Part shown: positions 8,475 to 49,424 of the stretch, piece by piece
How the letters are laid out: each line of letters begins with the position of its first letter
Numbering within the stretch: position 1 is the first letter of the stretch
Assembly: GCA_049323815.1 (NCBI GenBank)
Contig: JBMOOB010000020.1
Location: forward strand, 20,184 to 84,183
DNA length: 64,000 bases
Source of the DNA: Pseudomonadota bacterium
GTDB lineage: Bacteria; Pseudomonadota; Alphaproteobacteria; Sphingomonadales; Sphingomonadaceae
Direction of reading: 5' to 3'
Made by a program: the position numbers and the translations under genes
Notes under the pieces: model-generated
Database searches by the model: none
What the model was told of the DNA's origin: nothing
What the model saw: the letters and a program-made list of their open reading frames with translations, nothing else

Positions 8475-8840
8475 ATGACCGACCCGAATATCCGCCGCCT
8501 CGGCGCCACGCCGCGCATGAGCAACGCCGTCGTCCACAACGGGACCGTCCATTTGTCGGGCCAGGTCGCGATCACGCATCGCGGCGGCGACGTCGACGAC
8601 CAGATTCGCGAAGTGCTGGAACGCATCGACACGCTGCTGACCGAAGCGGGCAGCAGCCGCGCGCAGTTGCTGACCGCGCAGTTGCTCCTGTCCGACATGG
8701 CGATCCTGCCGCGGCTGAATGAGCAATGGGACCAATGGATCGAACCCGGCTGCGCGCCGACGCGCACGACGATCCAGACGGTGCTGGCGTCGCCCGCCTA
8801 TGCACTGGAAATCGCCGTGACGGCGGCGGTCGTCGGCTGA
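8475..8840 (+). CDS. RidA/Rid-family enamine/imine deaminase-like protein
   Basis: MTDPNIRRLGATPRMSNAVVHNGTVHLSGQVA..LNEQWDQWI..APTRTTI..LEIAVTAA. Confidence 0.85.
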   Translation: MTDPNIRRLGATPRMSNAVVHNGTVHLSGQVAITHRGGDVDDQIREVLERIDTLLTEAGSSRAQLLTAQLLLSDMAILPRLNEQWDQWIEPGCAPTRTTIQTVLASPAYALEIAVTAAVVG

Positions 8841-8847
8841 ACGCCGG

Positions 8848-10089
8848 TCACGCCGCCTCGCGGTCGCCCCGCATCGCATAGGCAAGCACACCGAGGCGGC
8901 GGATGCCCTCCCCCGCCGCGTCGGACCCGATATACGAGAAGCTAAGCCGTACGCGGTTGCGCGGCATCTGCGCGCCGTTCGCGAGCACCGGGTGGAACGA
9001 CGTGCCCGAGATGACCGAGGTGTCGCACTCCTCCAGCGCGCGGCGCGCGAAGACGTCGCCATCGACGCCGTCGGGCAGCGTCATCCAGATGTAGAGCCCG
9101 CCTTCCGGCCGCGTCCATTGCGTGCCCGGCGGCATGTGCGCGGCCAGCCCCGCCAGCATCGCGTCGCGCCGTTCGCGATAGACAGTGCGGGCATGCGCGG
9201 TCAGCGCCTCCAGCCGCGTCTCGGCGATTTCGAGCAGCATCATCTGGTTGAGCGCGCTGGTGGCGAGATCCGCCGCCTGCTTCAGCAGCACCAGCTTGCG
9301 CACCACCGCCGCCGGTCCGGCGATCCAGCCGACGCGCAGCGATGGCGCGACGGTCTTGGAAAACGTGCCTGTCTGCAGCACCGGCGACGCCTCGACACCG
9401 CCCGATTGCCGCGCGCCCACGACGAACAGCGACGGCAGCGCCTCGCCGTCATAGCGCAGATGTTCGTAGCACGCGTCCTCCAGCACCGGCATACCCGCGG
9501 CGCGCGCGCGGGCGACCAGCCGTTCGCGATCCTCGCGCAACAGCGACGTGCCGGTGGGGTTCCTGAACTCGGTGCCGACATAGGCGAATTTCGCGTGCTC
9601 CAGCGACGCGTCCAGCGCCTCGCCCTCGGGCACCGCGACATAGGTCGGTTCATAGGCATCGAAGGCGCGCAGCGCGCCGATGAAGCTCGGCACCTCGACC
9701 ATCACCGGGTCGCCGGGCGCGACGAACAGCTTGGCCACCAGGTCGATCGCCTGCTGCGACCCGTTGGTGATGACGATATTGTCGATGCCGCACGGCGCGC
9801 CAGCCTGCGTCAGTTGCTCCGCGATCCAGGCGCGCAGCGGCGCATGGCCTTCGCTCGGCGCATATTGCAGCGCGGTGCGCGCGCGGGCGCGATCGCCCAG
9901 GATCGTGTCCGCCGCCGCCTTGATCTCGGCATAGGGAAAGATCGCCGGATCGGGCAGCCCGCCGCCAAGGTGGATGATCCGGCGGCTGGCAAGCAGCTTC
10001 ATCCGTTCGCGGATGTCCGATGCGGCAACGCCGCGCATACGCGGAGCATAAAGTGCATCCCAGTCGGGCGGCGCGGGCGTTTCGGTCAT
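8848..10089 (-). CDS. PLP-dependent aminotransferase class I/II (2-aminoadipate transaminase/MocR-like, no HTH)
   Basis: IHLGGGLPDP, LQYAPSEG, ITNGSQQAIDL, EDACY, GTFSKTVAPSLRVGW with the PLP lysine. Confidence 0.88.
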   Translation of the reverse strand: MTETPAPPDWDALYAPRMRGVAASDIRERMKLLASRRIIHLGGGLPDPAIFPYAEIKAAADTILGDRARARTALQYAPSEGHAPLRAWIAEQLTQAGAPCGIDNIVITNGSQQAIDLVAKLFVAPGDPVMVEVPSFIGALRAFDAYEPTYVAVPEGEALDASLEHAKFAYVGTEFRNPTGTSLLREDRERLVARARAAGMPVLEDACYEHLRYDGEALPSLFVVGARQSGGVEASPVLQTGTFSKTVAPSLRVGWIAGPAAVVRKLVLLKQAADLATSALNQMMLLEIAETRLEALTAHARTVYRERRDAMLAGLAAHMPPGTQWTRPEGGLYIWMTLPDGVDGDVFARRALEECDTSVISGTSFHPVLANGAQMPRNRVRLSFSYIGSDAAGEGIRRLGVLAYAMRGDREAA

Positions 10090-18407: not shown

Positions 18408-19634
18408 ATGGCAGGCTTTGCCGCGGCACACCCGGAGGTCGCCGAACCCGCAACCGAACTCCCGATGGCGCGGTGGCGCCGCTGGCTGATCATGTTCATC
18501 CTGCTGACCGGCGGGATCAAGACGACGCTTGCCTTCACCACGGTCGTCCCTGCGTTGCAGCTCATCTCCGAATATTTCAGCGGCGCGTCGGACAGCGTGC
18601 TGAGCGCGCAGATGCTCGTCACGCTGGCACCCGCGGGCATGGCGGTGGGGGGGCTGCTGGCCGGGTGGGTAGTCGGCCAGGGCGGTTTGCGTCGCACGCT
18701 CTATATCTCGCTCAGCGTATGTTCGGTCGCCGGGCTGGCGCAATTGTTCGTCGAAAGCTGGTCGGTGCTGCTTGCCAGCCGCTTCCTGCTCGGCTTCGCT
18801 GTCGTGACCAGCGATGTGGCGATGACCAGCATCCTCGCGGCGCAGTTCACCGGAAAGACGCGGTCGCGCATCATCGGGTTCCGCCAGGCCATCTCGTCGG
18901 CGGGTACGGTGTCGACGATGCTGATCGCGGGCTATCTGGCGCAGGCCTATGGCTGGCGCGCGCCGTCGTGGCTGTTCCTGGTCCCGGTCGTGATGCTGGT
19001 GCTTGCGCTGATCGCATTCGACCGGCCCATCGTGCTGGCGAAGCAGACGACCGAGAAAGAGCAGTTCTCCGTGCTTCAGCTCTGGCCGCTGTTCGTGCTG
19101 TCGCTCATCATGTCGGTCGCGCACACCATGCCGTCGTTCCAGATGCCCTTCCTGCTCAAGGCGGACGGAATCGACAGCGCGGTGCTCGTGTCGCGCGTGC
19201 CGGCGCTCAGCGCGCTCATCTCGATCCTGTCGGCGATGGCGTTCGGCTGGATCTACATGCGCTGCGGCCGCTTCACGCTGATCGCGGCAGGGTGTTTCAT
19301 GGCGGTGGGCTTTCTGGGGGTGAGCCACGCGCCGACCTATGAATTCATCCTGATGTGCGTGGTGGTCGAAGGGATCGGCGCGGGCTGGACCATGCCCTAT
19401 TTCCAGGCGCGGCTGCTCGACCGAGTGACGCCGGCGCAGCGAAGCCAGGCGATCGGATTCCTGACGACGTCGCTGTTCCTGGGCCATTTCGTCAATCCGC
19501 TCATCACTGCGCCGGTACGCAACGCGCTCGGCATTCACGCGACCTTCACGGCGGTGGCGATCGCGCTGCTGGTGCTGTGCGCCGGGCTGGCAGTACGCGC
19601 GCGGGCGACGCGGGGGCACGCGACGATCATCTGA
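18408..19634 (+). CDS. MFS transporter
   Basis: About 12 hydrophobic segments, GWVVGQGGLRRT motif-A-like loop. ATG 18408 follows AGGAAAGG. Confidence 0.85.
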   Translation: MAGFAAAHPEVAEPATELPMARWRRWLIMFILLTGGIKTTLAFTTVVPALQLISEYFSGASDSVLSAQMLVTLAPAGMAVGGLLAGWVVGQGGLRRTLYISLSVCSVAGLAQLFVESWSVLLASRFLLGFAVVTSDVAMTSILAAQFTGKTRSRIIGFRQAISSAGTVSTMLIAGYLAQAYGWRAPSWLFLVPVVMLVLALIAFDRPIVLAKQTTEKEQFSVLQLWPLFVLSLIMSVAHTMPSFQMPFLLKADGIDSAVLVSRVPALSALISILSAMAFGWIYMRCGRFTLIAAGCFMAVGFLGVSHAPTYEFILMCVVVEGIGAGWTMPYFQARLLDRVTPAQRSQAIGFLTTSLFLGHFVNPLITAPVRNALGIHATFTAVAIALLVLCAGLAVRARATRGHATII

Positions 19635-19659
19635 TCGGCCTGCGTTCCGGGCAAAAGGG

Positions 19660-19696
19660 AAGCGCGGCGGAAGCTATCTTCCGCCGCGCTTTTTTT
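19660..19696 (+). terminator. Rho-independent terminator after the MFS gene
   Basis: AAGCGCGGCGGAAG-CTAT-CTTCCGCCGCGCTT followed by a T-run. Confidence 0.85.
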
Positions 19697-19712
19697 GGGT
19701 TCGGTTGAAGGG

Positions 19713-19866
19713 GTTCACGTAGAGGGCGCGGAGACGCAGAGAAGAGAAGGGAGAGTGCCTGGGCGCCGCCGCCCTTGTCGCTTCCCGCTCGCGCTTGGAC
19801 GGAGGGCAGACGACCGGGCGCAACCTCCTCTGCGTCTCCGCGCCTCTTCGCGTGCTCTGCGTGAAC
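19713..19866. repeat. Palindromic repeat family B, copy 1
   Basis: Left arm GTTCACGTAGAGGGCGCGGAGACGCAGAG; right arm CTCTGCGTCTCCGCGCCTCTTCGCGTGCTCTGCGTGAAC. Related arms at 50562-50755 and 56787-56928. Confidence 0.7.
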
Positions 19867-19911
19867 AGTCCCAGCGAACCCGCAGCCTCCCGTCGCCGGG
19901 GGCTGCCCGGC

Positions 19912-20508
19912 TCACTCCCCGGCGGCGATCCCCGCGCGGCGCCAGCGGGCGAAGGTCACGACCTGCTCGGCCACTGCCTCAAGCTGCCCCTGCACCTTCT
20001 CGTCCAGGCATGTGCCCTGCGCGTCAAACATCGGCCCCGACGCATTGACCGCGGCGCCGAACGGCGTCGGCCAGGCGCGCAGCGCGTGCGCGATCGACCG
20101 CAGCGTCACCAGCGTCGTGCCGCATGCCTGCCACCCGAACGCCGTCACGATCGCGCCGAACGCGCGCCCGTCCAGATAGACGCGCTCGTCTTTCGACAAG
20201 TCTTCCAGCAAATCGAGCGCATTCTTGATCGGCCCCGACAGGCTGCCGTGATATCCCGGCGACGCGACGATCATGCCGTCGCACTCGCGCACCGCGCGGA
20301 CGAACTCGACTTCTGCTTCGTTCCGCTCGATTTTGCCCGGCACATAGAGCGGCAGCGCGGACACGAAGGCGCCGTCGAACAGTTGCACCTCGCACCCCAT
20401 CGCCTCCGCCTTGGCGAGCGCCATGCGCACCGCGCATTCGCTGGTGGAATTGGGGCGGGCGGTGCCGCCCAGGCCCACGATCTTCAACTTGCCGGTCTCG
20501 CTGGTCAC
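19912..20508 (-). CDS. NADPH-dependent FMN reductase (SsuE family)
   Basis: VGLGGTARPNS, IVASPGYHGSLSGPIKNALD, TLVTLRSIAHALRAWPTP. Confidence 0.9.
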   Translation of the reverse strand: MTSETGKLKIVGLGGTARPNSTSECAVRMALAKAEAMGCEVQLFDGAFVSALPLYVPGKIERNEAEVEFVRAVRECDGMIVASPGYHGSLSGPIKNALDLLEDLSKDERVYLDGRAFGAIVTAFGWQACGTTLVTLRSIAHALRAWPTPFGAAVNASGPMFDAQGTCLDEKVQGQLEAVAEQVVTFARWRRAGIAAGE

Positions 20509-21750
20509 TCACGCCTCCCGCGACTGTTGGTGTCGCCTATATTCGATCCGCGCAAGTGCACGGTTGTGTACTTCGTCCGGCCCGTCGGCGAAACGCAGCG
20601 TCCGTACAAGGGCATAGGCTGCCGCGAGCGGAAAATCGTCGCTCACGCCGCCGCCGCCATGCGCTTGAATCGCATCGTCGAGGACGTTCAGGGCGACGCG
20701 CGGCCCCGCCACCTTTATCATCGCGATTTCGCGCTGGGCGACCTTGTTGCCGACCTTGTCCATCATGTCGGCGGCCTTCAGGCACAGGAGCCGCGTCATC
20801 TCTATGTCCATGCGTGCAGTGGCGACGCGTTCCTCCCACACCGAATGGTCGCCGATGCGCTTGCCGAACGCCTCGCGCGTCAGGATGCGGCCGACCATGG
20901 AGTCGAGCGCCATTTCGGCGAGCCCGATCGTGCGCATGCAATGGTGGATGCGACCCGGCCCCAGCCGCCCCTGCGCGACTTCGAACCCGCGCCCCTCGCC
21001 CAGCACCATATTTTCAGCGGGGACGCGGACGTTGTTGAAGCGGATCTCGCAATGGCCGTGCGGCGCGTCGTCATACCCGAAGACGGGCAGCGGCCGCTCG
21101 ATCGTGATCCCGGGCGCATCGGCGGGCACCAGTATCTGCGCGTGCCGGGCGTGGCGCGGCGCGTCGGGATTGCTGCGGCCGAGCAGGATGAACAGCTTGC
21201 AGCGCGGATCGCCCGCGCCCGAAATCCACCATTTGCGGCCGTTGAGGACATAGTCGTCGCCGTCGCGCTCGATGGTGGTGGCGATGTTGGTCGCGTCCGA
21301 GCTGGCGACACCCGGCTCGGTCATTGCGAAGGCCGAGCGGATCTCGCCCGCCAGCAGCGGCTTCAGCCACCGTTCCTTCTGCGCGGGCGTGCCGTATCGG
21401 TGCAGCACTTCCATGTTGCCGGTGTCGGGCGCGGAGCAGTTGAACACTTCCGACGCCCAGGGGATGCGCCCCATTTCCTCGGCGCAGGGCGCATATTCCA
21501 GATTGCTCAGCCCCGCGCCGCGATAGTCGCCTTCATCATGTTCGGCCGACGGCGCCAGGAACAGGTTCCACAGCCCCTCGGCCTTCGCCTTTTCCTTCAG
21601 TTCCTCGACCACCGGCAGCGCGCGCCAGCGCGTCGGCCCTTCGGCGAGCTCGGCGCGATAGCGCGCCTGTGCTGGCACGACATGCGCGTTCATGAAGGCG
21701 CGGACGCGGCCCGCCCAATGCGCCTGGGTTTCGGATGGCGTGAAATCCAT
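20509..21750 (-). CDS. Acyl-CoA dehydrogenase, LvaC/ACAD10-11-like subfamily
   Basis: [69 protein letters not shown] (Asp where most ACADs have Glu). Confidence 0.88.
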
Positions 21751-21769
21751 GCTTGCTGCCCTGCCCCTG

Positions 21770-22822
21770 TCAGCGCCGCGTCTGCACGAGCGCGAGTTCG
21801 GCGATCCGGTCGAGCTGCTCGACTGCCTCGGCCGCCTGCGGCGAGGAAGCGGTACCGCGGATCAGCCGGCCCTTGATGCCGTGGATGATCGCCGCCAGCC
21901 GGAACAGGCTGAAAGCGACGTAGAAGTCGAGATGGTCAATCCCATCGCGCCCCGTGCGGCGGCAATAGGCCGCGACATAGTCCTCCTCGCCCGGGATGTT
22001 GCGCGCCTTGAGGTCGAGCCCGGCAAGCCCCGTCGAAAAGCCCGGCGGCATCCGCCACGCCATCAGGTGATAGGCGAAATCGGCGAGCGGATGGCCCAGC
22101 GTCGACAATTCCCAGTCGAGCACCGCCAGCACGCGCGGCTCGGTCGGGTGGAACAACAGATTGTCGCAGCGATAGTCGCCGTGGACGATCGAGCTGCTGT
22201 CGTCCGCCGGGATATTGGCGGGCAGCCATTCGATCAGCGCGTCCATCGCCGCAACGCGGCCGGCGTCGGTGTCGTCGAGATATTGTGTCGACCAGCGGCC
22301 GATCTGGCGCTCGAAATAATTGCCCGGCCGGCCATAGTCGCCCAGCCCCACCGCCGCCGGGTCGATCGCGTGCAGCCGCGCGATCACGTCGTTCATTGCG
22401 TCGAAATAGGCGGGGCGGTCGGCGTGCGCCACTTCAGGGAAAGCGGTGTCCCAGAAATTGCGGCCCGCGACATGTTCCATCACATAGAAGGGCGTGCCGA
22501 TCACCTCGGGCTCGATACACAGCCCATAGGGCCGCGCGACGGGAAAGCCGGTCGGGTGCAGCGCCGCGATCAGCCGATATTCGCGCTCGACTGCGTGCGC
22601 GCCCTTCAGCAGCACGCCCGGCGGCTTGCGGCGCAGCACATAGTCGCGGTCGGGCGTCGACAGGCGATAGGTCGGATTCGACTGGCCGCCCGCGAACTGG
22701 CGCACCGACAGCGGCCCGGCATAGCCGTCGACATGCGCGCGCATCCAGGCGTCGAGCCCCGCCTCATCGAACCGATGCGCCTCGCGCACCGGCCCCGCCG
22801 CGCTGCGGTCGTGCTCAGCCAT
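21770..22822 (-). CDS. APH-like phosphotransferase (LvaA/ACAD10-11 kinase-domain-like)
   Basis: [50 protein letters not shown]. Confidence 0.88.
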
Positions 22823-23753
22823 GGGCCGCCGATGCCGTCAGCGTCCTGCCGCGCGCCGCCTGCAGCAATTCCAGCTCGTGCGCCGATTGCTGCAACCCCG
22901 TTTCGGGCACCCTCTCTTCGGTCCGGTCGCGCACCTGCGGCAGCGCGGCGAGCAGGCGTTCGGCCGCGTCGGGGCCCCCGCCGATGTGCACACCCTGCGT
23001 CAGCGTAATGTGCGCCGCCTCGAAGCTGCCGGCGCCCGCGCACAGGATCATGCCGTTGGGCGCGTCGTCCGACACCAGCGCCAGCACGCCCGCCGACACG
23101 GTTTCGGGGGCGAGTGCCGCCAGTACCTCGGGCGTCATGATGTCCTCGGTCATCCGCGTCGCCGCCGACGGGGCGAGGCAATTGATACGGATGCCGTATT
23201 TCGCACCTTCGTGGCGCAGCGTGGTCATCACGCCGACCAGCCCCATCTTGGCCGCGCCATAATGCGACTGGCCGAAATTGCCATAGAGGCCCGAGGACGA
23301 AGTGGTCATCAGGATGCGGCCGTAATTCTGCGCGCGCATCATTCCCCACACGGCCTTGGTGCAGTTGACCGACCCCATCAGATGGACTTCGACCAGCGCG
23401 CGGAAATCGGCGAGTTCGAGCTTGGCGAAGGTACGGTCGCGCAAGATGCCCGCGTTGTTGACCAGGATGTCGACGCGTCCCCATTGCTCCCTGGCGGCCG
23501 CGACCATCGCCTCGACCTGGTCGAATTCAGTGACGCTGGCGGCATTGGCGATCGCCTCGCCGCCCGCCGCGCGGATCTCCTCGACCACGGCCTCCGCCAT
23601 GGTCGCGGCACCACCGGTGCCGTCGCGCGCGCCGCCCAGGTCGTTGACGACCACCTTCGCCCCCCGGCTGGCGAGCAACAGCGCATGCGCGCGGCCCAGG
23701 CCGCCGCCCGCGCCCGTGACGATCGCCACCCTCTCCGTGAGGTCGATCTTCAT
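22815..23753 (-). CDS. SDR, MFE-2-type (3-hydroxyacyl-CoA dehydrogenase-like)
   Basis: MKIDLTERVAIVTGAGGGLGRAHA..VVNDLGG..NNAGILRD..GNFGQSHYGAAK. Confidence 0.9.
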   Translation of the reverse strand: MKIDLTERVAIVTGAGGGLGRAHALLLASRGAKVVVNDLGGARDGTGGAATMAEAVVEEIRAAGGEAIANAASVTEFDQVEAMVAAAREQWGRVDILVNNAGILRDRTFAKLELADFRALVEVHLMGSVNCTKAVWGMMRAQNYGRILMTTSSSGLYGNFGQSHYGAAKMGLVGVMTTLRHEGAKYGIRINCLAPSAATRMTEDIMTPEVLAALAPETVSAGVLALVSDDAPNGMILCAGAGSFEAAHITLTQGVHIGGGPDAAERLLAALPQVRDRTEERVPETGLQQSAHELELLQAARGRTLTASAAHG

Positions 23754-23764
23754 AGCGTCTCCTT

Positions 23765-25525
23765 TCAGATACAGTCCGCCGGAATCTCGGCGGTCAGGGT
23801 GCTGCACGCCGCCACCGGCGCCAGCCACGCCGCGATACGCGGCACTTCGCGTTCGAAATAATAGCGGCACGCCCAGCGCTTGCCCGCGCGGAACGGGTCG
23901 GTCGCCGCGTCGGCGTCCGCACACAGCAGCGCGCGGTCGAGCCATTGCCAGGCGACCACGCCATGGCCGAATGCGCGCAACATCGCAGTCGCGTTGACCG
24001 ACGCGGAAACGCCCGCGCCCTTCAGCGTCGCGGTCACGTCGCCGATGTGCGTCCAGACCGCCTCCAGCGTATCCGCCTCCTGCACCAGCACCCCCGCCGC
24101 GCGCGCGGCTGCGATGGTGGCGTCGATCCGCGCGCGCAGCATCGCCAGCGCGCCCGCATCGTCGCGCAGCAACTTGCGCCCGACCAGGTCGAGCCCCTGG
24201 ATACCCGTCGTGCCTTCGTGGATCGGATTCAGGCGATTGTCGCGCCACAGCTGCTCGACGTCGAAATCGCGCGTATAGCCGTATCCGCCGTGCACCTGAA
24301 TCGCCAGGTCGTTCGCCACCAGCCCCCATTCGGACGGGTACGTCTTGGCGACCGGCGTCAGCAGGCCCAGCAGCGCCGCCGCCTCCGCGCTGCCATGCTC
24401 CTGGTCGACCAACCGCGCGCAATAGAGCACCAGCGCCAGCGCGCCCTCGGCATGGCATTTGGCGGCCATCAGCATGTCGCGGACGTCAGGATGCTCGATA
24501 ATCGGACGCGAACCTGGCGGCGCGTCGCTGCCGGCCGGTCGGCCCTGCAGCCGTTCGGTCGCATAGCGTTTCGCCAGTGCATAGCCGCGATAGCCGAGCG
24601 CGGCCGCGCCCAGCCCGACGTTGATCCGCGCCTCGTTCATCATCTGGAACATCTGGGGCAGCCCCTGCCCCTCGGCACCGACCAGCCAGCCGATCGCGCC
24701 GTCGCCGCGCTCGCCGAAATTGAGCAGGCAATTGGTCGTGCCGCGATAGCCCATCTTGTGATTGATGCCCGCCACTGCGATGTCATTGTCGCTGCCGTCG
24801 GGCAGGCGGCGCGGAACGATGAACAGCGAGAGGCCGCGCGTGGTCGGCGCCAGCCGGCCGTCGGCGTCGGGCACCTTCGCCAGCACCAGATGGACGATAT
24901 TGTCCGACAGGTCATGGTCGCCGCCCGAAATCCACATCTTGTTGCCGGTCAGGCGATAGCGGCGGCCTAATTCGTCCTCGCCGTCGGGCATCGCGCGCGT
25001 CGCGACATCGGCCAAATTCGACCCCGCCTGCGGCTCCGACAGGCACATGGTGCCGAACCATTCGCCCGCGATCTGCGGCCGGGCAAAGGCGTCGACCTGC
25101 GCCGCGCTGCCGAAGGTGGCGATCAGCCGCGCATTGGCGGCGGTCAGCATCGGATAGGCGGCGGTGGCGACATTCGCCGCCAGGAATTGCGCGAAGGACG
25201 CGCTGGCGAGCAGCATCGGCAGCCCCGACCCGCCCAGTTCCTCGGCAAAGCCCGCCGAGAACAGACCCATTTCCGCATAACGGCGCAACGCCTCGCCGAT
25301 GGGCGGATAGGCGCGCACGCGCCCGTCGACCACTTGCGGCTCATTGGCGTCCGAGCCCTTCCAATGGCTCAGAAAGGCATCGACGGCCAGTTCTTGCGAC
25401 ACGTCCAGGATGGCGGCGGCGGAATCGCGGTCGACCGAACCGGAGCCGCCCAGCACCTCTTCCAGCCCCAGCCATTCCCACAGCAGGAAGTCGAGCTCGT
25501 CTCGGGAAATCAACAGCTCGTCCAT
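23765..25525 (-). CDS. Acyl-CoA dehydrogenase (long, about 586 aa)
   Basis: MDELLISRDELDFLLWEWL, GTMCLSEPQAGSNL, GNKMWISGGDHD, QVHGGYGY, RLNPIHEGTTGIQ. Confidence 0.9.
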   Translation of the reverse strand: MDELLISRDELDFLLWEWLGLEEVLGGSGSVDRDSAAAILDVSQELAVDAFLSHWKGSDANEPQVVDGRVRAYPPIGEALRRYAEMGLFSAGFAEELGGSGLPMLLASASFAQFLAANVATAAYPMLTAANARLIATFGSAAQVDAFARPQIAGEWFGTMCLSEPQAGSNLADVATRAMPDGEDELGRRYRLTGNKMWISGGDHDLSDNIVHLVLAKVPDADGRLAPTTRGLSLFIVPRRLPDGSDNDIAVAGINHKMGYRGTTNCLLNFGERGDGAIGWLVGAEGQGLPQMFQMMNEARINVGLGAAALGYRGYALAKRYATERLQGRPAGSDAPPGSRPIIEHPDVRDMLMAAKCHAEGALALVLYCARLVDQEHGSAEAAALLGLLTPVAKTYPSEWGLVANDLAIQVHGGYGYTRDFDVEQLWRDNRLNPIHEGTTGIQGLDLVGRKLLRDDAGALAMLRARIDATIAAARAAGVLVQEADTLEAVWTHIGDVTATLKGAGVSASVNATAMLRAFGHGVVAWQWLDRALLCADADAATDPFRAGKRWACRYYFEREVPRIAAWLAPVAACSTLTAEIPADCI

Positions 25526-25695
25526 GATGCCCGGACGCGACCCCTCACCATTTTTTGCAGTTGCGAAGCGGCCTAGGGCAGCACGCGCCGCCGTGTCGAT
25601 TGCCGAAGCTGAAACCCAGCCGTCGCAAACCGGCATTTGCCCCCGCACCGTCCCCGGCCGAGCGTGATTTCCGACTGACACCAAAGGTGAAGACG

Positions 25696-26619
25696 ATGGG
25701 CAGGCTGCATCCGGAAATGCAGGCGATCCTCGATCGGCGCGCGGCTTCGGGCGCACTGGGCTTTGCCGACGGCACGCCCGAAAGCGCGCGCGCGATGTTC
25801 GCCGAGGCTCAGGCGGCGCTCCCACGCGACCGGGGGCGCCCGGTGCGCGCGATCCGCGACCGGGCCGTCCCGGGGCCGCTGGGCGACGTGCCTGTGCGCC
25901 ATTACCTGCCCGAAGGCGATATCGCGGGACGCATGCTCTATTGCCATGGCGGCGGCTGGGTGTTCGGCACGCTCGACGCGTTCGATCCGGTGTGCCGCGA
26001 ACTGGCGGCGATCGCCGGAATCGAAGTGGTCAGCGTCGACTATCGCCTCGCGCCCGAACATCGCTTTCCCGTGCCGCTCGACGATGTCTGGGCGGCGCTC
26101 GCCGACATCGCCGACCCGGGCATGCCGCTGATCGTCGCGGGCGACAGCGCGGGCGGCAACCTCGCCGCGGCGCTGTCGTTGCGCGCGCGCGATGCCGGGG
26201 GGCCGGACATCGCGCTCCAGCTATTGCTCTATCCCGTCCTCGACTGGGACTTCGAACGCGCTTCCTATCGCGACTATGGCGGGGGCGACCACCTGATCTC
26301 ACGCGCCGACATGGCCTGGTTCTGGGACCAGCACGTCGCGACGGAGGATCGCGCCAATCCGCTCGCTGCGCCGCTGCGCGCGCCCGATCTGGCGGGCTTG
26401 CCCGAAGCGGTGGTGGTGGTCGCGGGCTGCGACCCGCTCCACGACGAAGGAATCGCCTATGCCCGACGATTGGCGGAGGCAGGCGTGCCCGTGACGGTCA
26501 AGGACCATGGCGACATGGCACATGGCTTCTTCACGCTCGTCGACCTGATCGGGCCGGCCAATGCCGCGGTGGCGGATATCGGCGGGATGATCGGCCGGCG
26601 GCTGCGCGCGGGGGATTGA
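25696..26619 (+). CDS. Alpha/beta hydrolase (HSL-family esterase/lipase)
   Basis: HGGGW, DYRLAPEHRFP, GDSAGG nucleophile elbow, DPLHDE, HGFF. Confidence 0.92.
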   Translation: MGRLHPEMQAILDRRAASGALGFADGTPESARAMFAEAQAALPRDRGRPVRAIRDRAVPGPLGDVPVRHYLPEGDIAGRMLYCHGGGWVFGTLDAFDPVCRELAAIAGIEVVSVDYRLAPEHRFPVPLDDVWAALADIADPGMPLIVAGDSAGGNLAAALSLRARDAGGPDIALQLLLYPVLDWDFERASYRDYGGGDHLISRADMAWFWDQHVATEDRANPLAAPLRAPDLAGLPEAVVVVAGCDPLHDEGIAYARRLAEAGVPVTVKDHGDMAHGFFTLVDLIGPANAAVADIGGMIGRRLRAGD

Positions 26620-26727
26620 GGCGGGACGAACGCGCGCGTCGGTACCCGGCCTCCGTTCGCCGGGAGCAACGCTTCGGCGCAGCCGGGCATGTGCGCGAGA
26701 CGCGTGGGCTCATACTCCGGCGCGCCG

Positions 26728-27732
26728 CTAGGCCTCCGCCAGCTCCGCCTCGGCCCTCGCCTTCTCCACTGCCTCGACAAAATTGAGCACCAGCGGCGAG
26801 CTGCTGCTCTTGCGCACCACCATGCTGAGCGGCAGCGGCAGGTCCAGGTCGGGCAGCGGCTTGATGACTACGTCGCGCGGCGCGCGGTCGGCGCGCACGG
26901 CAGTCACGATGCCGACGCCCATTTCGGACGCCACCAGCCCGAAGGCGATGTCGACGTTCGACACCTCGACCGAGATTTCCGGCGTCACGCCGCGCGCGTC
27001 GAACGCCGCCACCATGCGCCCGAACAGCCGCGGCGAATGCTGGCGCGACGGAAAGATCAGCGGCTCGCCGACCAGGTCGTGCAAGTGGACGACCTCATTC
27101 GCTTCGAGCGGATGGCCATGCGGCAGCACCGCGACGAATTTGTCCATGCCGATCCGCGTCGTCGCGAATTCCTCGGCATCGCCGGCTTCCTCGATCACGA
27201 AGCCCACGTCGATCTCGCCGCCGCGCAGCCGCTGGCGCTGTGCCTCCGATGTCAGCGGGAAGGCGCGGATCTCCACTTCCGGATATTGCGCGCGGTAGCT
27301 GCGCAGCACGGGCGGCAGCAACGGACCGCGCACCATCGCCTCGGTAAAGGCGATGCGCAGCGTGCCGATGTCGCCGCGCGCCACGCGGCGGACGCGGCGG
27401 CTCGCCTCCTCGATCGACTGGAGAATTTGCCGCACGTCGCGCGCCAGCACGCGCCCCGCCTCGGTAATCGACACGCCGCGCGCCTGGCGCTCGAACAGCG
27501 GAATGTCGCCCAGTTCGCGTTCCAGATCGGCGATGCGGCGCGACAGCGCGGATTGGGCGATGTTCAGCCGTTCCGCCGCGCGGTGCAGGTTCTGCTCCTC
27601 CGCGACAGCCAGGAAAAAGGGGAAATGCTTGGCGATCCGCAACGTGCGCAGCGTCGCGAGTTCGCGCGGAACCGGGCGCGGGCTAAGCGATGCCGTGAGG
27701 TCAATGGTTCGGCGTTCATTCGGCATTTGCAA
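26728..27732 (-). CDS. LysR family regulator (true start may be downstream)
   Basis: FLAVAEEQNLHRAAERLNIAQSALSRRIADLERELG..LFERQARGVSITEAG. Divergent from the LLM gene. Confidence 0.88.
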   Translation of the reverse strand: MQMPNERRTIDLTASLSPRPVPRELATLRTLRIAKHFPFFLAVAEEQNLHRAAERLNIAQSALSRRIADLERELGDIPLFERQARGVSITEAGRVLARDVRQILQSIEEASRRVRRVARGDIGTLRIAFTEAMVRGPLLPPVLRSYRAQYPEVEIRAFPLTSEAQRQRLRGGEIDVGFVIEEAGDAEEFATTRIGMDKFVAVLPHGHPLEANEVVHLHDLVGEPLIFPSRQHSPRLFGRMVAAFDARGVTPEISVEVSNVDIAFGLVASEMGVGIVTAVRADRAPRDVVIKPLPDLDLPLPLSMVVRKSSSSPLVLNFVEAVEKARAEAELAEA

Positions 27733-27785
27733 CAGGACCTTTCAGCGAAGACGTTCGCGGCATCCGCAGCCACGAGACCAGAACG

Positions 27786-28913
27786 ATGCGCTTTTCCCTT
27801 ATTTTCGAAGCTCAGATCGTCGATGCATCCCCTCGCGGCGAGCAACAGGTGTTCGACGAACTTGTCGAACAGACTCTGCTCGCCGAGCAACTCGGGTTCG
27901 ACGTCGTTTGGAGCGTCGAGCACACGTCGCTGACGCATTATGCACATATGAGCGCGCCTGAAACCTTCCTTGCCTATATTGCAGGGAAGACATCGCGGAT
28001 CGGCATCGGCCATGGGGTCGTCTGCCTGATGCCGGCGATGAACCACCCCATCAAGGTCGCCGAACGCGTCGCCACGCTCGACATCCTGTCAAAAGGACGG
28101 CTGCATTTCGGCGTCGGCAAGGGCGGCAGCCAGCAGGAAGCCGGCGCCTATGGCTATGACCTGAAGGAGCTTCAGCCGATCATCGACGAGGCGATGTACC
28201 TGATCCCGCGCATGTTCGTGGAGGACGAGGTGCAGCATAACGGCGAGCACATCGCCATTCCGCCGCGCCCGATCCATCCCAAGCCGTACCAGGACCCGCA
28301 TCCGCCGATGTACCTGGCGTGCACCAACCTCGACACGCTGGCGCGCGCGGGACAGCGCGGCATGGGCGCGCTGGTGCTCGGCTTCGGCGGGCCCGAAGAG
28401 GTGGCGAACAAGAACAGAATCTATCGCGACGCCTGGGCCGGCCGCAAGCCTGAGGACCAGGTCGGATACCGCCCGATCCAGCATCTGGCGGCGCTATGCC
28501 CGACGGTGGTGCTCGACGATGCCGACCAGGCGCGCACCATCGGCCTGCGCGGCCAGCGCTATTTCTATGAATCGCTCAATTACTGGTACGGCGGCGGCCC
28601 GCGCCCCGACCCCGACAAATGGGGCACCGAGCTGGTCGACGAGAACAACCAGATCATCACCACCAAGCTGGCGTCGGAAACCGTCACCATGGACCTGCGC
28701 CCGGACGAGAACGGCCGCAAGCCGAGCCAGGGCATCCTGTCGGCGCAGAACGCCTATGGCAGCGTCGAGGACTGCATCGACTATGTCCGGCAACTCGCCG
28801 ACGCTGGCGCCGACGAGATCCTGTTCATGACCAACATGGGCACGGTGCCGCAATGGGCGCAATTGGAAACGCTGCGCAAGATCGGCACCTATGTGATCCC
28901 GCACTTCCGGTGA
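27786..28913 (+). CDS. Luciferase-like (LLM class) flavin-dependent monooxygenase
   Basis: AEQLGFDVVWSVEH, HPIKVAERVATLDILSKGRLHFGVGKG. Confidence 0.9.
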   Translation: MRFSLIFEAQIVDASPRGEQQVFDELVEQTLLAEQLGFDVVWSVEHTSLTHYAHMSAPETFLAYIAGKTSRIGIGHGVVCLMPAMNHPIKVAERVATLDILSKGRLHFGVGKGGSQQEAGAYGYDLKELQPIIDEAMYLIPRMFVEDEVQHNGEHIAIPPRPIHPKPYQDPHPPMYLACTNLDTLARAGQRGMGALVLGFGGPEEVANKNRIYRDAWAGRKPEDQVGYRPIQHLAALCPTVVLDDADQARTIGLRGQRYFYESLNYWYGGGPRPDPDKWGTELVDENNQIITTKLASETVTMDLRPDENGRKPSQGILSAQNAYGSVEDCIDYVRQLADAGADEILFMTNMGTVPQWAQLETLRKIGTYVIPHFR

Positions 28914-33440: not shown

Positions 33441-33616
33441 GCCGTCACGCCCCCGCCGCGCACGTCGATCAGCGCCGCGATGCGCGCGCGCAGATAGTCA
33501 TACTGGCCGGCCAGCAACTGATCGTCGGTGTCGGCGAGCCGCTCGGCCAGCGCCAGCATCTCGGCGAGCAGCCGGTCGTCCTCATGTGGTTCGGACGGCA
33601 TCCCAGTCTCTCCCAT
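33437..33616 (-). CDS. Small acidic hypothetical protein (59 aa, or 54 aa from ATG 33601)
   Basis: MGETGMPSEPHEDDRLLAEMLALAERLADTDDQLLAGQYDYLRARIAALIDVRGGGVTA. ATG overlaps the upstream TGA and its TGA overlaps the downstream GTG. High GC3 codon usage. Below the ORF-track cutoff. Confidence 0.7.
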   Translation of the reverse strand: MGETGMPSEPHEDDRLLAEMLALAERLADTDDQLLAGQYDYLRARIAALIDVRGGGVTA

Positions 33617-35016
33617 CAGAGCCGATAGCCCTGCTGGCGCTCGTCCTTCCAGCGCCGGGCCTTGTAGGCGAAGTCCTTGAATTCGGAGCGCGGCACTTCG
33701 ACCACGTCCATCCAGACGTTGGTGCGCTCCTTGATCTTCCTGCGGATCGATTCGGTCAGCCGCGCGCGCTCGTCCTCGCCCAGCGCGCCGACATGCTCGG
33801 CGACGGCGTAGCGGACCTCGATCTCGGTCCTGGCGTCGCGCGTGTAGAGGCGGCCGTCATATTCGCCGACTTCGGCGTGCGCGAAGACGGCGGCGTCGAT
33901 CATCGCGGGCCACACATTGTTGCCGCGAATCTTCATCATGTCGTCGAACCGGCCGATCGTGCCGCATTCGACCGCGTTCCACGCGCCGCCGCCGCATTCC
34001 TGCCACGGCACCAGCCGCGCGGCGTCGCCGGTGCGGAACCGGACCACCGGGCTGCCCTCGACCGACAGGTTGGTGACGATCATCTCGCCGACTTCGCCGG
34101 GCAGCGTCGGCGCGCCGGTCGCGGGGTCGACGATCTCGACCATCGATTCCCATTCGAACAGGCGGATCAGCCCGCGCCCGTCGCCGCGGAACACGCCCGC
34201 CGCCCCGGTGGAGCCGCCGAAGCCGTTGAGCTGCGTGCTGCCATAGCCTTCCTGCAACCGGCAGCCCCAATGTTCCTCGATCTTCGCCGCCCATTCGAGC
34301 GGATAGCCCTCCGCCGCAATGAACAGGCCGTGCATGTCGGGAAATGCCTCGCGCGGGGAAATGCCGCGCGCCAGCAGCGCCTCGGTCAGCGTGTGGAGAT
34401 AGTTGGTCGAGGCATAGATGAACTGCATGCCGCCGATCTTGGTCAGCAGGTCGATCTTCGCCTCGGTCGACAAATTGCCGCCCAGGTGGAAACCGGTGGC
34501 GCCCATGATGCGGATCGCCTCGCCGGGTCCCCAGCCGCCCGTCGTCATCCCCCCGGCGGGGACACAGTTGATCGCCGTGTCGCCCTTGCGCAGCCCCGCC
34601 ATGTACCAGGGCAGCGCGTGGAGATAGCCGAGCATGTGCACGTCGCGCTGAGTGCGGCCATAGATTTCCTGACCCTGCCCCGACGTGCCGCTGGTCATGC
34701 TGATGTGCACCACCTGCTCGCGATCGACGCCCAGCCGCGTACCGAACGGCGGGTTTTCCGCCTGATCGGCCAGGAACGCCTTCTTGTCGCTGGTCGGCAT
34801 CGCCTTGATGAACTGGTCGAGGCTCGTCACCTTGCCGTCGGCAAGGCCGCCCTCCGCCATCCGCGCGCGATAGAAGCTGCTCTTGGCCCACAGCCGCTCG
34901 CACAATGCCTGCACGCGCGTAAGCTGATAGGCCTCCAGCTCGTCGCGCGTCATGTCGTGGAAGCGCCGCAGCAGCGGCGACTGGGCAAAGGGATCGGCGA
35001 CGGGCGGCGATGCCAT
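33616..35016 (-). CDS. Phenylacetate-CoA ligase (PaaK)-family adenylate-forming enzyme
   Basis: MTSGTSGQG P-loop, EGYGSTQ, VVRFRTGD, GRFDDMMKIRGNNVWP. Confidence 0.88.
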   Translation of the reverse strand: MASPPVADPFAQSPLLRRFHDMTRDELEAYQLTRVQALCERLWAKSSFYRARMAEGGLADGKVTSLDQFIKAMPTSDKKAFLADQAENPPFGTRLGVDREQVVHISMTSGTSGQGQEIYGRTQRDVHMLGYLHALPWYMAGLRKGDTAINCVPAGGMTTGGWGPGEAIRIMGATGFHLGGNLSTEAKIDLLTKIGGMQFIYASTNYLHTLTEALLARGISPREAFPDMHGLFIAAEGYPLEWAAKIEEHWGCRLQEGYGSTQLNGFGGSTGAAGVFRGDGRGLIRLFEWESMVEIVDPATGAPTLPGEVGEMIVTNLSVEGSPVVRFRTGDAARLVPWQECGGGAWNAVECGTIGRFDDMMKIRGNNVWPAMIDAAVFAHAEVGEYDGRLYTRDARTEIEVRYAVAEHVGALGEDERARLTESIRRKIKERTNVWMDVVEVPRSEFKDFAYKARRWKDERQQGYRL

Positions 35017-46148: not shown

Positions 46149-46514
46149 TCAGGCAAGCGCGACGCGGACAATCGCCGAGGCGCAAATGTGGTCGCGATCA
46201 CGCCCGACCACCTGCACATCGACGAAGCGGCTGCCGTCCAGGTGCCGCGCATAGACGCGCCCTGTCAGTTGCATGCCGTCGCGCGCGAATGTGCCGGGCC
46301 CCAGCACGCGGCCCAAATCGGCATGCGCGCATCCGGCCCAGGCGGCCACGCCCAGCCGGGCACGCTCCGCCCAGTCGGCGCCGGCCACGGCATCCCCGTC
46401 GAATTCGACGATGTCGCCGAGCTTCACATCGGCGAACCGCCGCCGCTGCCGCATCGACCATCCCCCTAGCGGACCGGCCGGGCGGGTGCGCCGCCGGGCC
46501 TGGCCCTGCGTCAC
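46149..46514 (-). CDS. Truncated/degenerate MaoC-type hot-dog protein (ChsH1-like)
   Basis: GTG overlaps the upstream TGA (alternative ATG at 46454). RRFADVKLGD..AAWAG..LTGRV..VDVQVVGRDRDHICASAIVRV resembles the ChsH1 C-terminal half; no D-x4-H hydratase motif. Confidence 0.55.
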   Translation of the reverse strand: MTQGQARRRTRPAGPLGGWSMRQRRRFADVKLGDIVEFDGDAVAGADWAERARLGVAAWAGCAHADLGRVLGPGTFARDGMQLTGRVYARHLDGSRFVDVQVVGRDRDHICASAIVRVALA

Positions 46515-47838: not shown

Positions 47839-48453
47839 ATGGCGACCCACGCCGACATCATGGAAACCATCCCCGCGGCGCCGCGTCCTGCGGCGCGCGA
47901 AGCGTTGGAAATGCTGGCCAGTCGACGTTCGCCGGCCCCCGACACGCTGGTCGCGCCAGCCCCCGGCGCCGAGGAAATCGAAACGATGCTGCGCATCGCG
48001 ACGCGGGTGCCCGACCATGGCCGCATCGCGCCATGGCGACTGATCCTGATCGCCGGAGAGGCAAAGGCCAACTGGCTCGCGAAGCTGATGGAGATCGCCG
48101 AATCGCGCGACGACGCACCCAAGGCGCGTGTCTCCGCGCGCAAGCTCGCGAGCGCGCCGCTCGTCGTGGTGCTGGTGTCGTCCCCGACGCCAGGGCACAA
48201 GATTCCCGAGTGGGAACAACAGCTATCGGCGGGCGCGGTCGGCATGAACCTGCTCCACGCCGCGCACGCGCTGGGTTATGGCGCCAACTGGCTGACCGGC
48301 TGGCACGCGTACGACCCCGCCGCGACCGCGCTGCTGGGCCTGGGCGAGCAGGAGAAGGTCGCGGCGGTGATGCCGATGGGCACAGTCGCCCAGCCGACGG
48401 CGGAACGCGAGCGCCCGGACACCGACCGTATCGCTACATGGCTGGAGCTCTGA
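47839..48453 (+). CDS. Nitroreductase family protein (YdjA-like)
   Basis: LASRRSP, RVPDHGRIAPWR, EWEQQLSAGA, GYGANWLTGW. Confidence 0.9.
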   Translation: MATHADIMETIPAAPRPAAREALEMLASRRSPAPDTLVAPAPGAEEIETMLRIATRVPDHGRIAPWRLILIAGEAKANWLAKLMEIAESRDDAPKARVSARKLASAPLVVVLVSSPTPGHKIPEWEQQLSAGAVGMNLLHAAHALGYGANWLTGWHAYDPAATALLGLGEQEKVAAVMPMGTVAQPTAERERPDTDRIATWLEL

Positions 48454-48641: not shown

Positions 48642-49424
48642 TCAGGCACGAAGCGCGGCGGACGATACGGTCTGGCTGGTGTCGAACCCGTGGCGACGCT
48701 CGCCCCCACCGCCCGAATAATGCTCGCGGATCGCGCGCTCGGCGGTCATCGCGTCGCCTTCGGCAATGGCGCGATAGATGCGCTCATGCTCGCGCGCCAG
48801 CGACAGGCGGACCGACCGGTCGACGAAGGTCCCGTGCACGGCATTGTCCAGTGCATGCGTATCGACCTGCGCGGTCCACATCTGCTCCAGCGCGCCGACC
48901 ACCAGGCTCATCGTCTGGTTGCCGCAATACGCGACCAGTTCGGTATGGAACGCGCGGGCAAGCGGAATGAACCGGCTGGGTTCGTCGATCGCTTCCATGC
49001 TGGCGTCGATGTTGGCGCGCAGCCGCGGCAGCACCGTCGTCTCGCGGTCGGGACGCATCGCCGCCTGCGCCGCGCAGGCGGGCTCCAGCAGGCGCATCGC
49101 GTCGATCAGGTCGATCAGCGGCACGCCACGCGACTGAAGCACCAGCGCCAGCATATAGGCCGCAGTCCCGGGCTGCGGCAGATGGACGATCGCGCCGCCC
49201 ACATTGCCGCGCAGCACGGTGATGAGGCCTTCGGTTTCCAGGATGCGGAACGCCTCGCGGATCGCGGGCGGACTGACGCCGAATTCGGTCATCAGTTCGT
49301 CTTGCTTGGGAAGCAGCGCGCCGTCGCTCAACGTGCCCGAAAGGATGCGCGCGCGCAGGCTGTCCGCGACGATTTCGGCGACACGCGGCTGGCGAAGGCG
49401 CCGCTTCGTCCTGAACTGTTCCAT
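48642..49424 (-). CDS. GntR family regulator (FadR subfamily)
   Basis: LPKQDELMTEFGVSPPAIREAFRILETEGLI wHTH followed by an FCD domain. Confidence 0.92.
   Translation of the reverse strand: MEQFRTKRRLRQPRVAEIVADSLRARILSGTLSDGALLPKQDELMTEFGVSPPAIREAFRILETEGLITVLRGNVGGAIVHLPQPGTAAYMLALVLQSRGVPLIDLIDAMRLLEPACAAQAAMRPDRETTVLPRLRANIDASMEAIDEPSRFIPLARAFHTELVAYCGNQTMSLVVGALEQMWTAQVDTHALDNAVHGTFVDRSVRLSLAREHERIYRAIAEGDAMTAERAIREHYSGGGGERRHGFDTSQTVSSAALRA

Follow-up and report, generated by a model that had tools for sequence, protein, structure and literature searches.

A phosphorylate-then-eliminate route for 4-hydroxy acids was reportedly elucidated in Pseudomonas in 2017 and in mammals in 2024–25; to our knowledge, natural bacterial substrates of the route beyond levulinate are not known. 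Here we describe a sphingomonad locus at positions 19912–26619 of a 64,000-nucleotide stretch of DNA (hereafter, the window), which covers positions 20,184 to 84,183 of the forward strand of contig JBMOOB010000020.1 in assembly GCA_049323815.1 (Sphingomonadaceae). The locus consists of a five-gene operon and a divergently transcribed esterase gene. The operon encodes a stand-alone APH kinase, an acyl-CoA dehydrogenase (ACAD) related to mammalian ACAD11, a short-chain dehydrogenase/reductase (SDR), a second, longer ACAD and an FMN reductase. Judging from homology and conserved residues, the kinase and the ACAD11-like protein, with the SDR, esterase and reductase in the roles set out below, probably return 4-hydroxyacyl-CoAs to β-oxidation. 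The residues that matter for this chemistry have been defined by mutagenesis in ACAD11, where substitution of R626, H634 or R637 abolishes the activity of the ACAD domain. The catalytic base is D753, in place of the customary Glu, and the D753N mutant has no ACAD activity (Rashan et al., PMC12440821). Among bacteria, Burkholderia pseudomallei has a stand-alone kinase and ACAD that could take the place of the ACAD10 domains in vitro, and bacterial kinases like that of B. pseudomallei are closer to ACAD10/11 than is LvaA, whose identity to the ACAD10/11 kinase domains is only 29% (Paquay et al., PMC11342911).

The six genes were verified using the listing of open reading frames (ORFs), GC content at third codon positions (GC3, 0.81–0.89 in the chosen reading frames) and Pfam/NCBIfam scans. 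The same evidence bears out the operon order ACAD-SDR-kinase-ACAD-FMN reductase with a divergent HSL esterase, which an earlier note on this DNA had read from the sequence. The raw ORFs of the long ACAD and the SDR (686 and 547 aa) were over-extended and were trimmed, the start being placed at the first Met fitting the homologues. The operon runs on the minus strand from 25525 to 19912, and the genes are as follows:

23765–25525, minus strand: long ACAD of the FadE/FadE5/DmdC type, 586 aa, operon gene 1 (Acyl-CoA_dh_N/M/1 and Acyl-CoA_dh_C).
22815–23753, minus strand: MFE-2-type SDR, 312 aa (adh_short, 2e-46).
21770–22822, minus strand: ACAD10/11-type APH kinase, 350 aa (PF01636, 3e-56).
20509–21750, minus strand: ACAD11/LvaC-type ACAD, 413 aa (match to ACAD11 structures, D389).
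19912–20508, minus strand: NADPH-dependent FMN reductase family protein, 198 aa, last operon gene (PF03358, 1e-22).
25696–26619, plus strand: family IV (HSL-type) esterase, 307 aa (Abhydrolase_3, 6e-69).

Successive operon genes are separated by 11 nt, an 8-nt overlap, 19 nt and 0 nt, and the five genes are therefore very likely co-transcribed. With gaps of 0–19 nt or an overlap, the operon leaves no room for an LvaB-like gene, in agreement with the earlier note, which saw none adjacent. Neither consensus sigma-70 promoters nor intrinsic terminators were found over 19600–27900.

The 413-aa ACAD was compared with all PDB sequences and scores 476 bits to mouse ACAD11 (8v3u, E 8.5e-142; 474 bits to 8v3v), while its scores to human ACAD11 (2wbi) and 4hr3 are 454 and 453 bits. 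Among conventional ACADs in the same comparison, the highest score is only 145 bits (4iv6). With 476 versus 145 bits, the protein does not group away from LvaC/ACAD11, the likeness to LvaA and LvaC being judged here through proxies, namely the ACAD11 structures and published identities. In the residue alignment, R262, R267, H270-C-M-R273 and D389 correspond to R626, R631, H634-C-M-R637 and D753 of ACAD11, and residues 261–273 are identical to ACAD11 across that stretch. D389 stands where usual ACADs have Glu; the mouse A* mutant (8v3v) has Asn there. For the kinase, the match to 3dxp reaches 414 bits and that to the mouse ACAD11 kinase domain (8v3v residues 11–351) 258 bits. The protein retains H214-G-D216, N221 and D236-W-E238, where D216 and N221 are equivalent to D220 and N225 of ACAD11, and its R172 corresponds to ACAD11 R176, which contacts CoA in the ACAD11 model. 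For R86, another contact given in the ACAD11 paper, the mapping onto the chain numbering is ambiguous. The best matches of the kinase come from Sphingomonas, Sphingobium, Rhizorhabdus and Croceicoccus. Given these scores and the retention of the mutagenesis-defined residues in both proteins, the kinase and the D389 ACAD form a split ACAD10/11 (LvaA/LvaC-type) pair, as the earlier note had proposed. Both proteins carry every sequence feature that could be tested for their enzyme families; the catalytic role is predicted.

The block is found in other sphingomonads. Four islands share the order of a divergent esterase followed by ACAD-SDR-kinase-ACAD11-like, at 61–83% identity: those of Sphingobium sp. 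CECT 9361, Sphingomonas colocasiae and S. populi and that on a JGI metagenome contig. In S. jatrophae the block is present except for the long ACAD. In Croceicoccus estronivorus the operon lacks the ACAD11-like gene, which sits about 10 kb off, and on plasmid pABRDHK22 (757 kb) of Novosphingobium sp. EMRT-2 a RidA gene takes the place of the ACAD11-like gene. Since the long ACAD and the ACAD11-like gene vary between islands, the invariant core consists of the esterase and the divergent SDR-kinase pair. All seven islands are from sphingomonads and have clear common ancestry (61–89% identity throughout), hence they are not independent. Orthologues of the long ACAD hold the same position, at 68–69% identity, in two of the compared loci (L028 and L048).

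In the proposed route, the kinase would use ATP to place a phosphate on the 4-hydroxyl of a 4-hydroxyacyl-CoA. The flavoenzyme would hold the 4-phospho group with R262, H270 and R273 and, with D389 as the base and a redox-active FAD, would expel phosphate to yield a 2-enoyl-CoA, which would re-enter β-oxidation. We infer the chemistry of these two enzymes from their close homology and conserved functional residues; the roles of the other proteins are proposed more cautiously. The SDR, which is translationally coupled to the kinase, most likely reduces 4-oxoacyl-CoA and would thus supply the kinase, a role played by LvaD that would fall here to a different SDR lineage. The FadE-type ACAD may carry out ordinary α,β-dehydrogenation in the neighbouring rounds of β-oxidation, and the esterase may release the hydroxyl, or else the acid, from a precursor that is an ester or a lactone. 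The FMN reductase stands outside this chemistry and most likely serves a luciferase-like monooxygenase (LLM). Several observations weigh against this route. According to a 2026 preprint (PMC13596139), 1-O-alkylglycerols are phosphorylated by several prokaryotic homologues as well as by the kinase domains of ACAD10, so the substrate of the kinase is not settled by homology alone. The block contains no acyl-CoA synthetase equivalent to LvaE: there is no AMP-binding gene within 19912–27732, and the nearest ligase gene (33616–35016) belongs to another operon. A free 4-hydroxy acid released by the esterase would therefore be without a dedicated activation step. The nearest characterised relatives of the SDR oxidise (3R)-3-hydroxyacyl-CoA and not 4-oxo or 4-hydroxy substrates, and the SDR is just 31% identical to the SDR of a second kinase/ACAD module in the core genome (see below). 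Finally, the five genes do not form an obligatory set, given that the operon is without the ACAD11-like gene in two islands and that the long ACAD is missing from one.

The place of the esterase in this route is the part most open to another explanation. The esterase has the complete family IV motifs, HGGG84, GDSAG149 (Ser151), D246 (DPL) and H276 (HGF), and no signal peptide is evident in it. It scores 312 bits to the NCBIfam LipP1 model, for which the cut-off is 350, and stays under all NCBIfam equivalog cut-offs. The gene is monocistronic and converges on a minus-strand LysR gene, with the LLM gene lying beyond:

25526–25695, no strand: divergent promoter region, 170 bp (aligned orthologous intergenic regions).
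26728–27732, minus strand: LysR-family regulator (HTH_1 and LysR_substrate).
27786–28913, plus strand: LLM, 375 aa (Bac_luciferase, 5e-47).

A single operon of esterase and LLM is ruled out by the opposite-strand LysR gene between them. The LysR protein is 66% identical to its S. colocasiae counterpart beside the block, and its gene stays next to the esterase in the orthologous islands. Esterase orthologues, at 61–65% identity, occupy the same divergent position in seven islands. Thus, the association between esterase and operon put forward by the earlier note is partly supported, in that the divergent pairing is kept in seven islands of five genera with differing flanks; the lactone substrate that the note had added to it is conjectural. 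The promoter between the two transcription units contains a palindrome, GCAAATGCCGGTTTGC, at 25625–25640, which is unique in the window. When six orthologous intergenic regions were aligned, GCAATTGCCCAATTGC was found at the same site in three of the five relatives, with the inverted repeat preserved by paired changes. A second conserved element, TTCGAT...ATTCGAC, follows the palindrome. The conservation of the palindrome suggests joint control of the esterase and the operon.

Nevertheless, the esterase may be a co-regulated neighbour with an unrelated job, for example de-esterifying an imported compound, its adjacency to the operon reflecting shared inheritance of the island. We consider this a serious possibility, with a chance somewhat short of even. 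The common ancestry of the seven islands means that the conserved adjacency is not independent evidence, the esterase is a generic member of family IV below every NCBIfam cut-off, and no CoA ligase joins its product to the CoA-dependent kinase. On the other hand, the combination of esterase and SDR-kinase persists even though the flanks differ and the FMN reductase, the ACAD11-like gene and the long ACAD are not always present, and the conserved palindrome suggests joint control.

The SDR raises a second alternative, which concerns its step only. By its scores, the protein is not a generic FabG but is of the MFE-2 type by a wide margin. Its best solved relatives are MFE-2 (3R)-hydroxyacyl-CoA dehydrogenases (2et6 from C. 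tropicalis, 376 bits; 1gz6, HSD17B4, 234 bits; 1zbq, 230 bits; 3oml, 226 bits), with other SDRs at 168 bits or less. It carries the motifs TGAGGGLG and NNAG, Ser152–154 and Y165xxxK169, and on this evidence it is not demonstrably LvaD-like. The SDR may then be a (3R)-3-hydroxyacyl-CoA dehydrogenase acting downstream of the pair, where it would oxidise released 3-hydroxyacyl-CoA, leaving the chemistry of the kinase and the ACAD11-like protein unchanged. Consistent with such a role, LvaC and ACAD10 yield some 3-hydroxyacyl-CoA beside 2-enoyl-CoA (PMC11342911), and a conventional ACAD shares the operon with the SDR. The latter protein, the long ACAD, is by sequence a conventional Glu-base dehydrogenase: it contains IHEGT, with the Glu base, and its best solved relatives are proteins of ~600 aa (8png, 302 bits; 6ijc, 264 bits; FadE5 6kpt, 224 bits). 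However, no R-specific hydratase is present in the block. The 8-nt overlap between the SDR gene and the start of the kinase gene is kept in every annotated orthologous locus, and the SDR remains beside the kinase even in islands where the ACAD11-like gene has left the operon. This invariance is more easily reconciled with a step preceding the kinase than with one following the ACAD, and for this reason we favour an SDR step feeding the kinase and regard the downstream position as rather unlikely.

Homologues of the SDR are also found outside of sphingomonads. In metagenome-assembled genomes (MAGs) of Rhizobiaceae, Hyphomicrobiales and Salaquimonas (L036, L038–L041), SDR homologues of 55–65% identity lie ~1.5–2.5 kb from a divergent ACAD11-like gene (54–56%), and in two of these five loci (L040, L041) a kinase gene is 3–6 kb away. 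The proximity of SDR and ACAD11-like genes in the Rhizobiaceae/Hyphomicrobiales MAGs thus extends the pathway association of the SDR beyond sphingomonads. By contrast, SDR homologues of 66–70% identity in MAGs of Hylemonella, Curvibacter and Aliidongia (L029–L033) have no kinase, ACAD11-like, long ACAD or esterase gene on the stretch examined, that is, 10 kb per side for L029 and L032 and contigs of 3–9 kb for L030, L031 and L033.

The FMN reductase is most likely the partner of the LLM. In three islands, those of S. colocasiae, S. populi and Sphingobium sp. CECT 9361, orthologues of the reductase (65–72%) stand head-to-head with orthologues of the LLM (86–89%), 213–231 bp apart (G180, G182 and G184; pair loci G180:C15:281373-283286, G182:C13:37270-39198 and G184:C3:192422-194245). 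In the window, 7.3 kb separate the two genes. The operons of the other six islands are not followed by an FMN reductase gene. A part for the reductase in the ACAD11-type chemistry, regenerating flavin, was considered and rejected, because elsewhere the gene is absent after the operon and the orthologue is paired with that of the LLM. Most simply, the reductase would serve the LLM, the two forming a putative two-component flavin monooxygenase, and in this genome its gene would have moved to the end of the kinase operon. Through the relocated reductase, the operon and the LLM would be indirectly linked in their regulation. In each of the five genomes checked, the LLM orthologue shares a contig with the block, and at 86–89% the LLM is the best-conserved protein of the island. 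A search for its subfamily in NCBIfam and PDB reached no cut-off, the best solved match scoring 90 bits, and the protein is without a close relative that has been characterised. The Baeyer-Villiger-type step of the LLM suggested in the earlier note is conjectural. On the Novosphingobium plasmid a RibB gene is close to the LLM gene.

The same set of genes could be joined into a longer pathway, in which the island runs a Baeyer-Villiger/esterase/phospho-elimination bypass on acyl-CoA thioesters. The neighbouring ring-opening genes would supply an oxo-acyl-CoA, such as a 5-oxoacyl-CoA similar to 4-methyl-5-oxo-octanedioyl-CoA, and the LLM and the FMN reductase would convert it to an ester by inserting oxygen beside its keto group. 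With CoA still in place, this ester would be cleaved by the esterase, and the 4-hydroxyacyl-CoA released directly in this way would pass through the kinase/ACAD11-like pair to β-oxidation. We regard this scheme as improbable. If true, it would explain the missing CoA ligase, the co-transcription of the reductase with the kinase operon and the fact that esterase, LLM and kinase travel together.

Very improbable is a kinase acting on some other hydroxylated lipid or metabolite, such as a 1-O-alkylglycerol or an intermediate of the ring compound, with the ACAD using the product or an unrelated substrate: prokaryotic homologues of the ACAD10 kinase did phosphorylate chimyl alcohol in vitro, some of them needing acetyl-CoA (PMC13596139), kinase homologues at 70% identity occur without a nearby ACAD (e.g., in Allosphingosinicella vermicomposti), and in two islands the kinase has no adjacent ACAD11-like gene, but the CoA-contact Arg (R172) is kept, acyl-CoA enzymes stand on both flanks, most islands have an ACAD with the full R/HCMR/D phosphate-binding set directly after the kinase, the 68%-identical kinases of congeners still pair with a divergent ACAD bearing HCMR and DGPTEVH, and no ether-lipid genes were seen near the kinase.

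Return of 4-hydroxyacyl-CoAs to β-oxidation by the kinase/ACAD11-like pair would not be a function of the island alone. The genome assembly (3.45 Mb, 50 contigs) contains a second module on contig C3 (L027:8771-13044, minus strand), comprising an ACAD11-like gene, a zinc-dependent alcohol dehydrogenase (Zn-ADH), a kinase and a classical SDR of 276 aa. The C3 kinase is 59% identical to the island kinase and the C3 ACAD 67% identical to its island counterpart, with HCMR and DGPDEVH. The core module may handle general 4-hydroxy acids, and the island-borne module is an accessory second copy that probably acts on an intermediate of the island's ring compound. Individually, the components are common in the family: ACAD11-like genes are present in 107 and MFE-2-like SDRs in 98 of the 151 sampled family genomes. 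The two copies are non-adjacent in the family genomes spot-checked by coordinates, and just one of 150 family genomes drawn, that of S. jatrophae, had the block-type ACAD and SDR side by side. Among 18 sampled congeners, the best kinase homologue is only 68% identical, and the block is absent beside the best kinase homologues in the five congener loci examined (G002, G014, G012, G006, G007). In four of these five (L016–L019), the kinase (65–68%) adjoins an ACAD that is only 34–37% identical. The ACAD of G002 (L016:9585-11782), the sole one translated, retains RLSHCMR and YDGPTEVH. Judging from these motifs, ACADs of the L016 type represent a divergent phosphate-binding ACAD subfamily paired with the same kinase clade.

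The block belongs to a large catabolic island that rearranges and, in at least one case, is carried on a plasmid. Its recurring neighbours include LysR, a ~100-aa protein, a nitroreductase, a GntR/FCD regulator, DapA-like, Coq4-like and Amidohydro_3 proteins, an aminotransferase, RidA, a P450 with TetR, a TonB receptor, SnoaL_4 and SDRs, and most of these have orthologues of 49–78% identity elsewhere in the window. The window orthologues of the genes flanking the S. colocasiae block (49–76%) are the following:

8487–8831: RidA.
8848–10089: aminotransferase.
46155–46439: ~100-aa protein.
47908–48450: nitroreductase.
48645–49382: GntR/FCD regulator.

These five genes directly flank the kinase block in S. 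colocasiae and are split to both sides of it in the window, where ~18 kb between the LysR gene and the gene for the ~100-aa protein hold the LLM, SDRs, a Rieske gene, CoA ligases and ring-opening genes. The closest IpdA-like gene (79–81%) lies on the same contig as the kinase in three other genomes, at a distance of 29–30 kb, and 23 kb from the kinase here. Most of the island gene set of the window is found on one stretch of the EMRT-2 plasmid (L054; NZ_CP039697.1, 711047-743785), which contains TetR-P450, the aminotransferase, RidA, the kinase block, LysR, the nitroreductase, the FCD regulator, the DapA-like gene, LLM-SDR, an amidohydrolase, the Coq4-like gene, a KshA-like Rieske protein, two SDRs, a small ORF and an AMP-ligase. 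The plasmid location of this gene set fits its patchy distribution in sphingomonads. The bile-salt side-chain cluster of Sphingobium Chol11 was considered as a counterpart of the island, and no link was found; the proteome paper on that cluster names no kinase, esterase or luciferase-like gene.

The enzyme pair itself is expected and not surprising; what is specific here is the accessory block in a mobile island and the relocated reductase of the LLM. The pair has been recruited, as an accessory and plasmid-capable copy, into a large sphingomonad catabolic island, with a partner set, the kinase-coupled MFE-2-type SDR and the divergent esterase, that differs from those of both the lva operon and the core module. 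The locus thereby offers a handle on which natural compound yields a 4-hydroxy or 4-oxo acyl-CoA and on the substrate of the island.

Compared with the core C3 module, the locus has the same kinase and ACAD families in another gene order: on C3 the Zn-ADH stands between the ACAD and the kinase, and there is neither an esterase nor a long ACAD. With the P. putida lvaABCDE operon it shares the logic of an SDR, a kinase and an ACAD working via a 4-phospho intermediate (Rand et al. 2017, cited from the summaries in PMC6692424 and PMC11342911), but strictly speaking it is no lva operon. The lva operon has LvaB, the CoA ligase LvaE and an LvaR-type regulator, none of which is present here, where the neighbouring regulator is of the LysR type. 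The kinase is of the ACAD10/11 type and belongs to another clade than LvaA. The LvaD homologue of P. citronellolis is a 255-aa SDR, whereas the protein described here is an MFE-2-type SDR of 312 aa. The closest tested bacterial analogue is the B. pseudomallei pair of kinase Q63VL0 and ACAD, likened here by its description, which has the same stand-alone architecture and no LvaB; no MFE-2-type SDR, long ACAD or esterase, all present here, is reported for that pair (PMC11342911). Mammalian ACAD11 and ACAD10 share with the locus both catalytic domains and all known functional residues (258 bits for the kinase, 476 for the ACAD). The HAD phosphatase domain of ACAD10 has no equivalent here. In mammals, the kinase and ACAD form one polypeptide; here two genes with a 19-nt gap encode them, in an operon that also codes for a flavin reductase, an SDR and a long ACAD of the conventional type.

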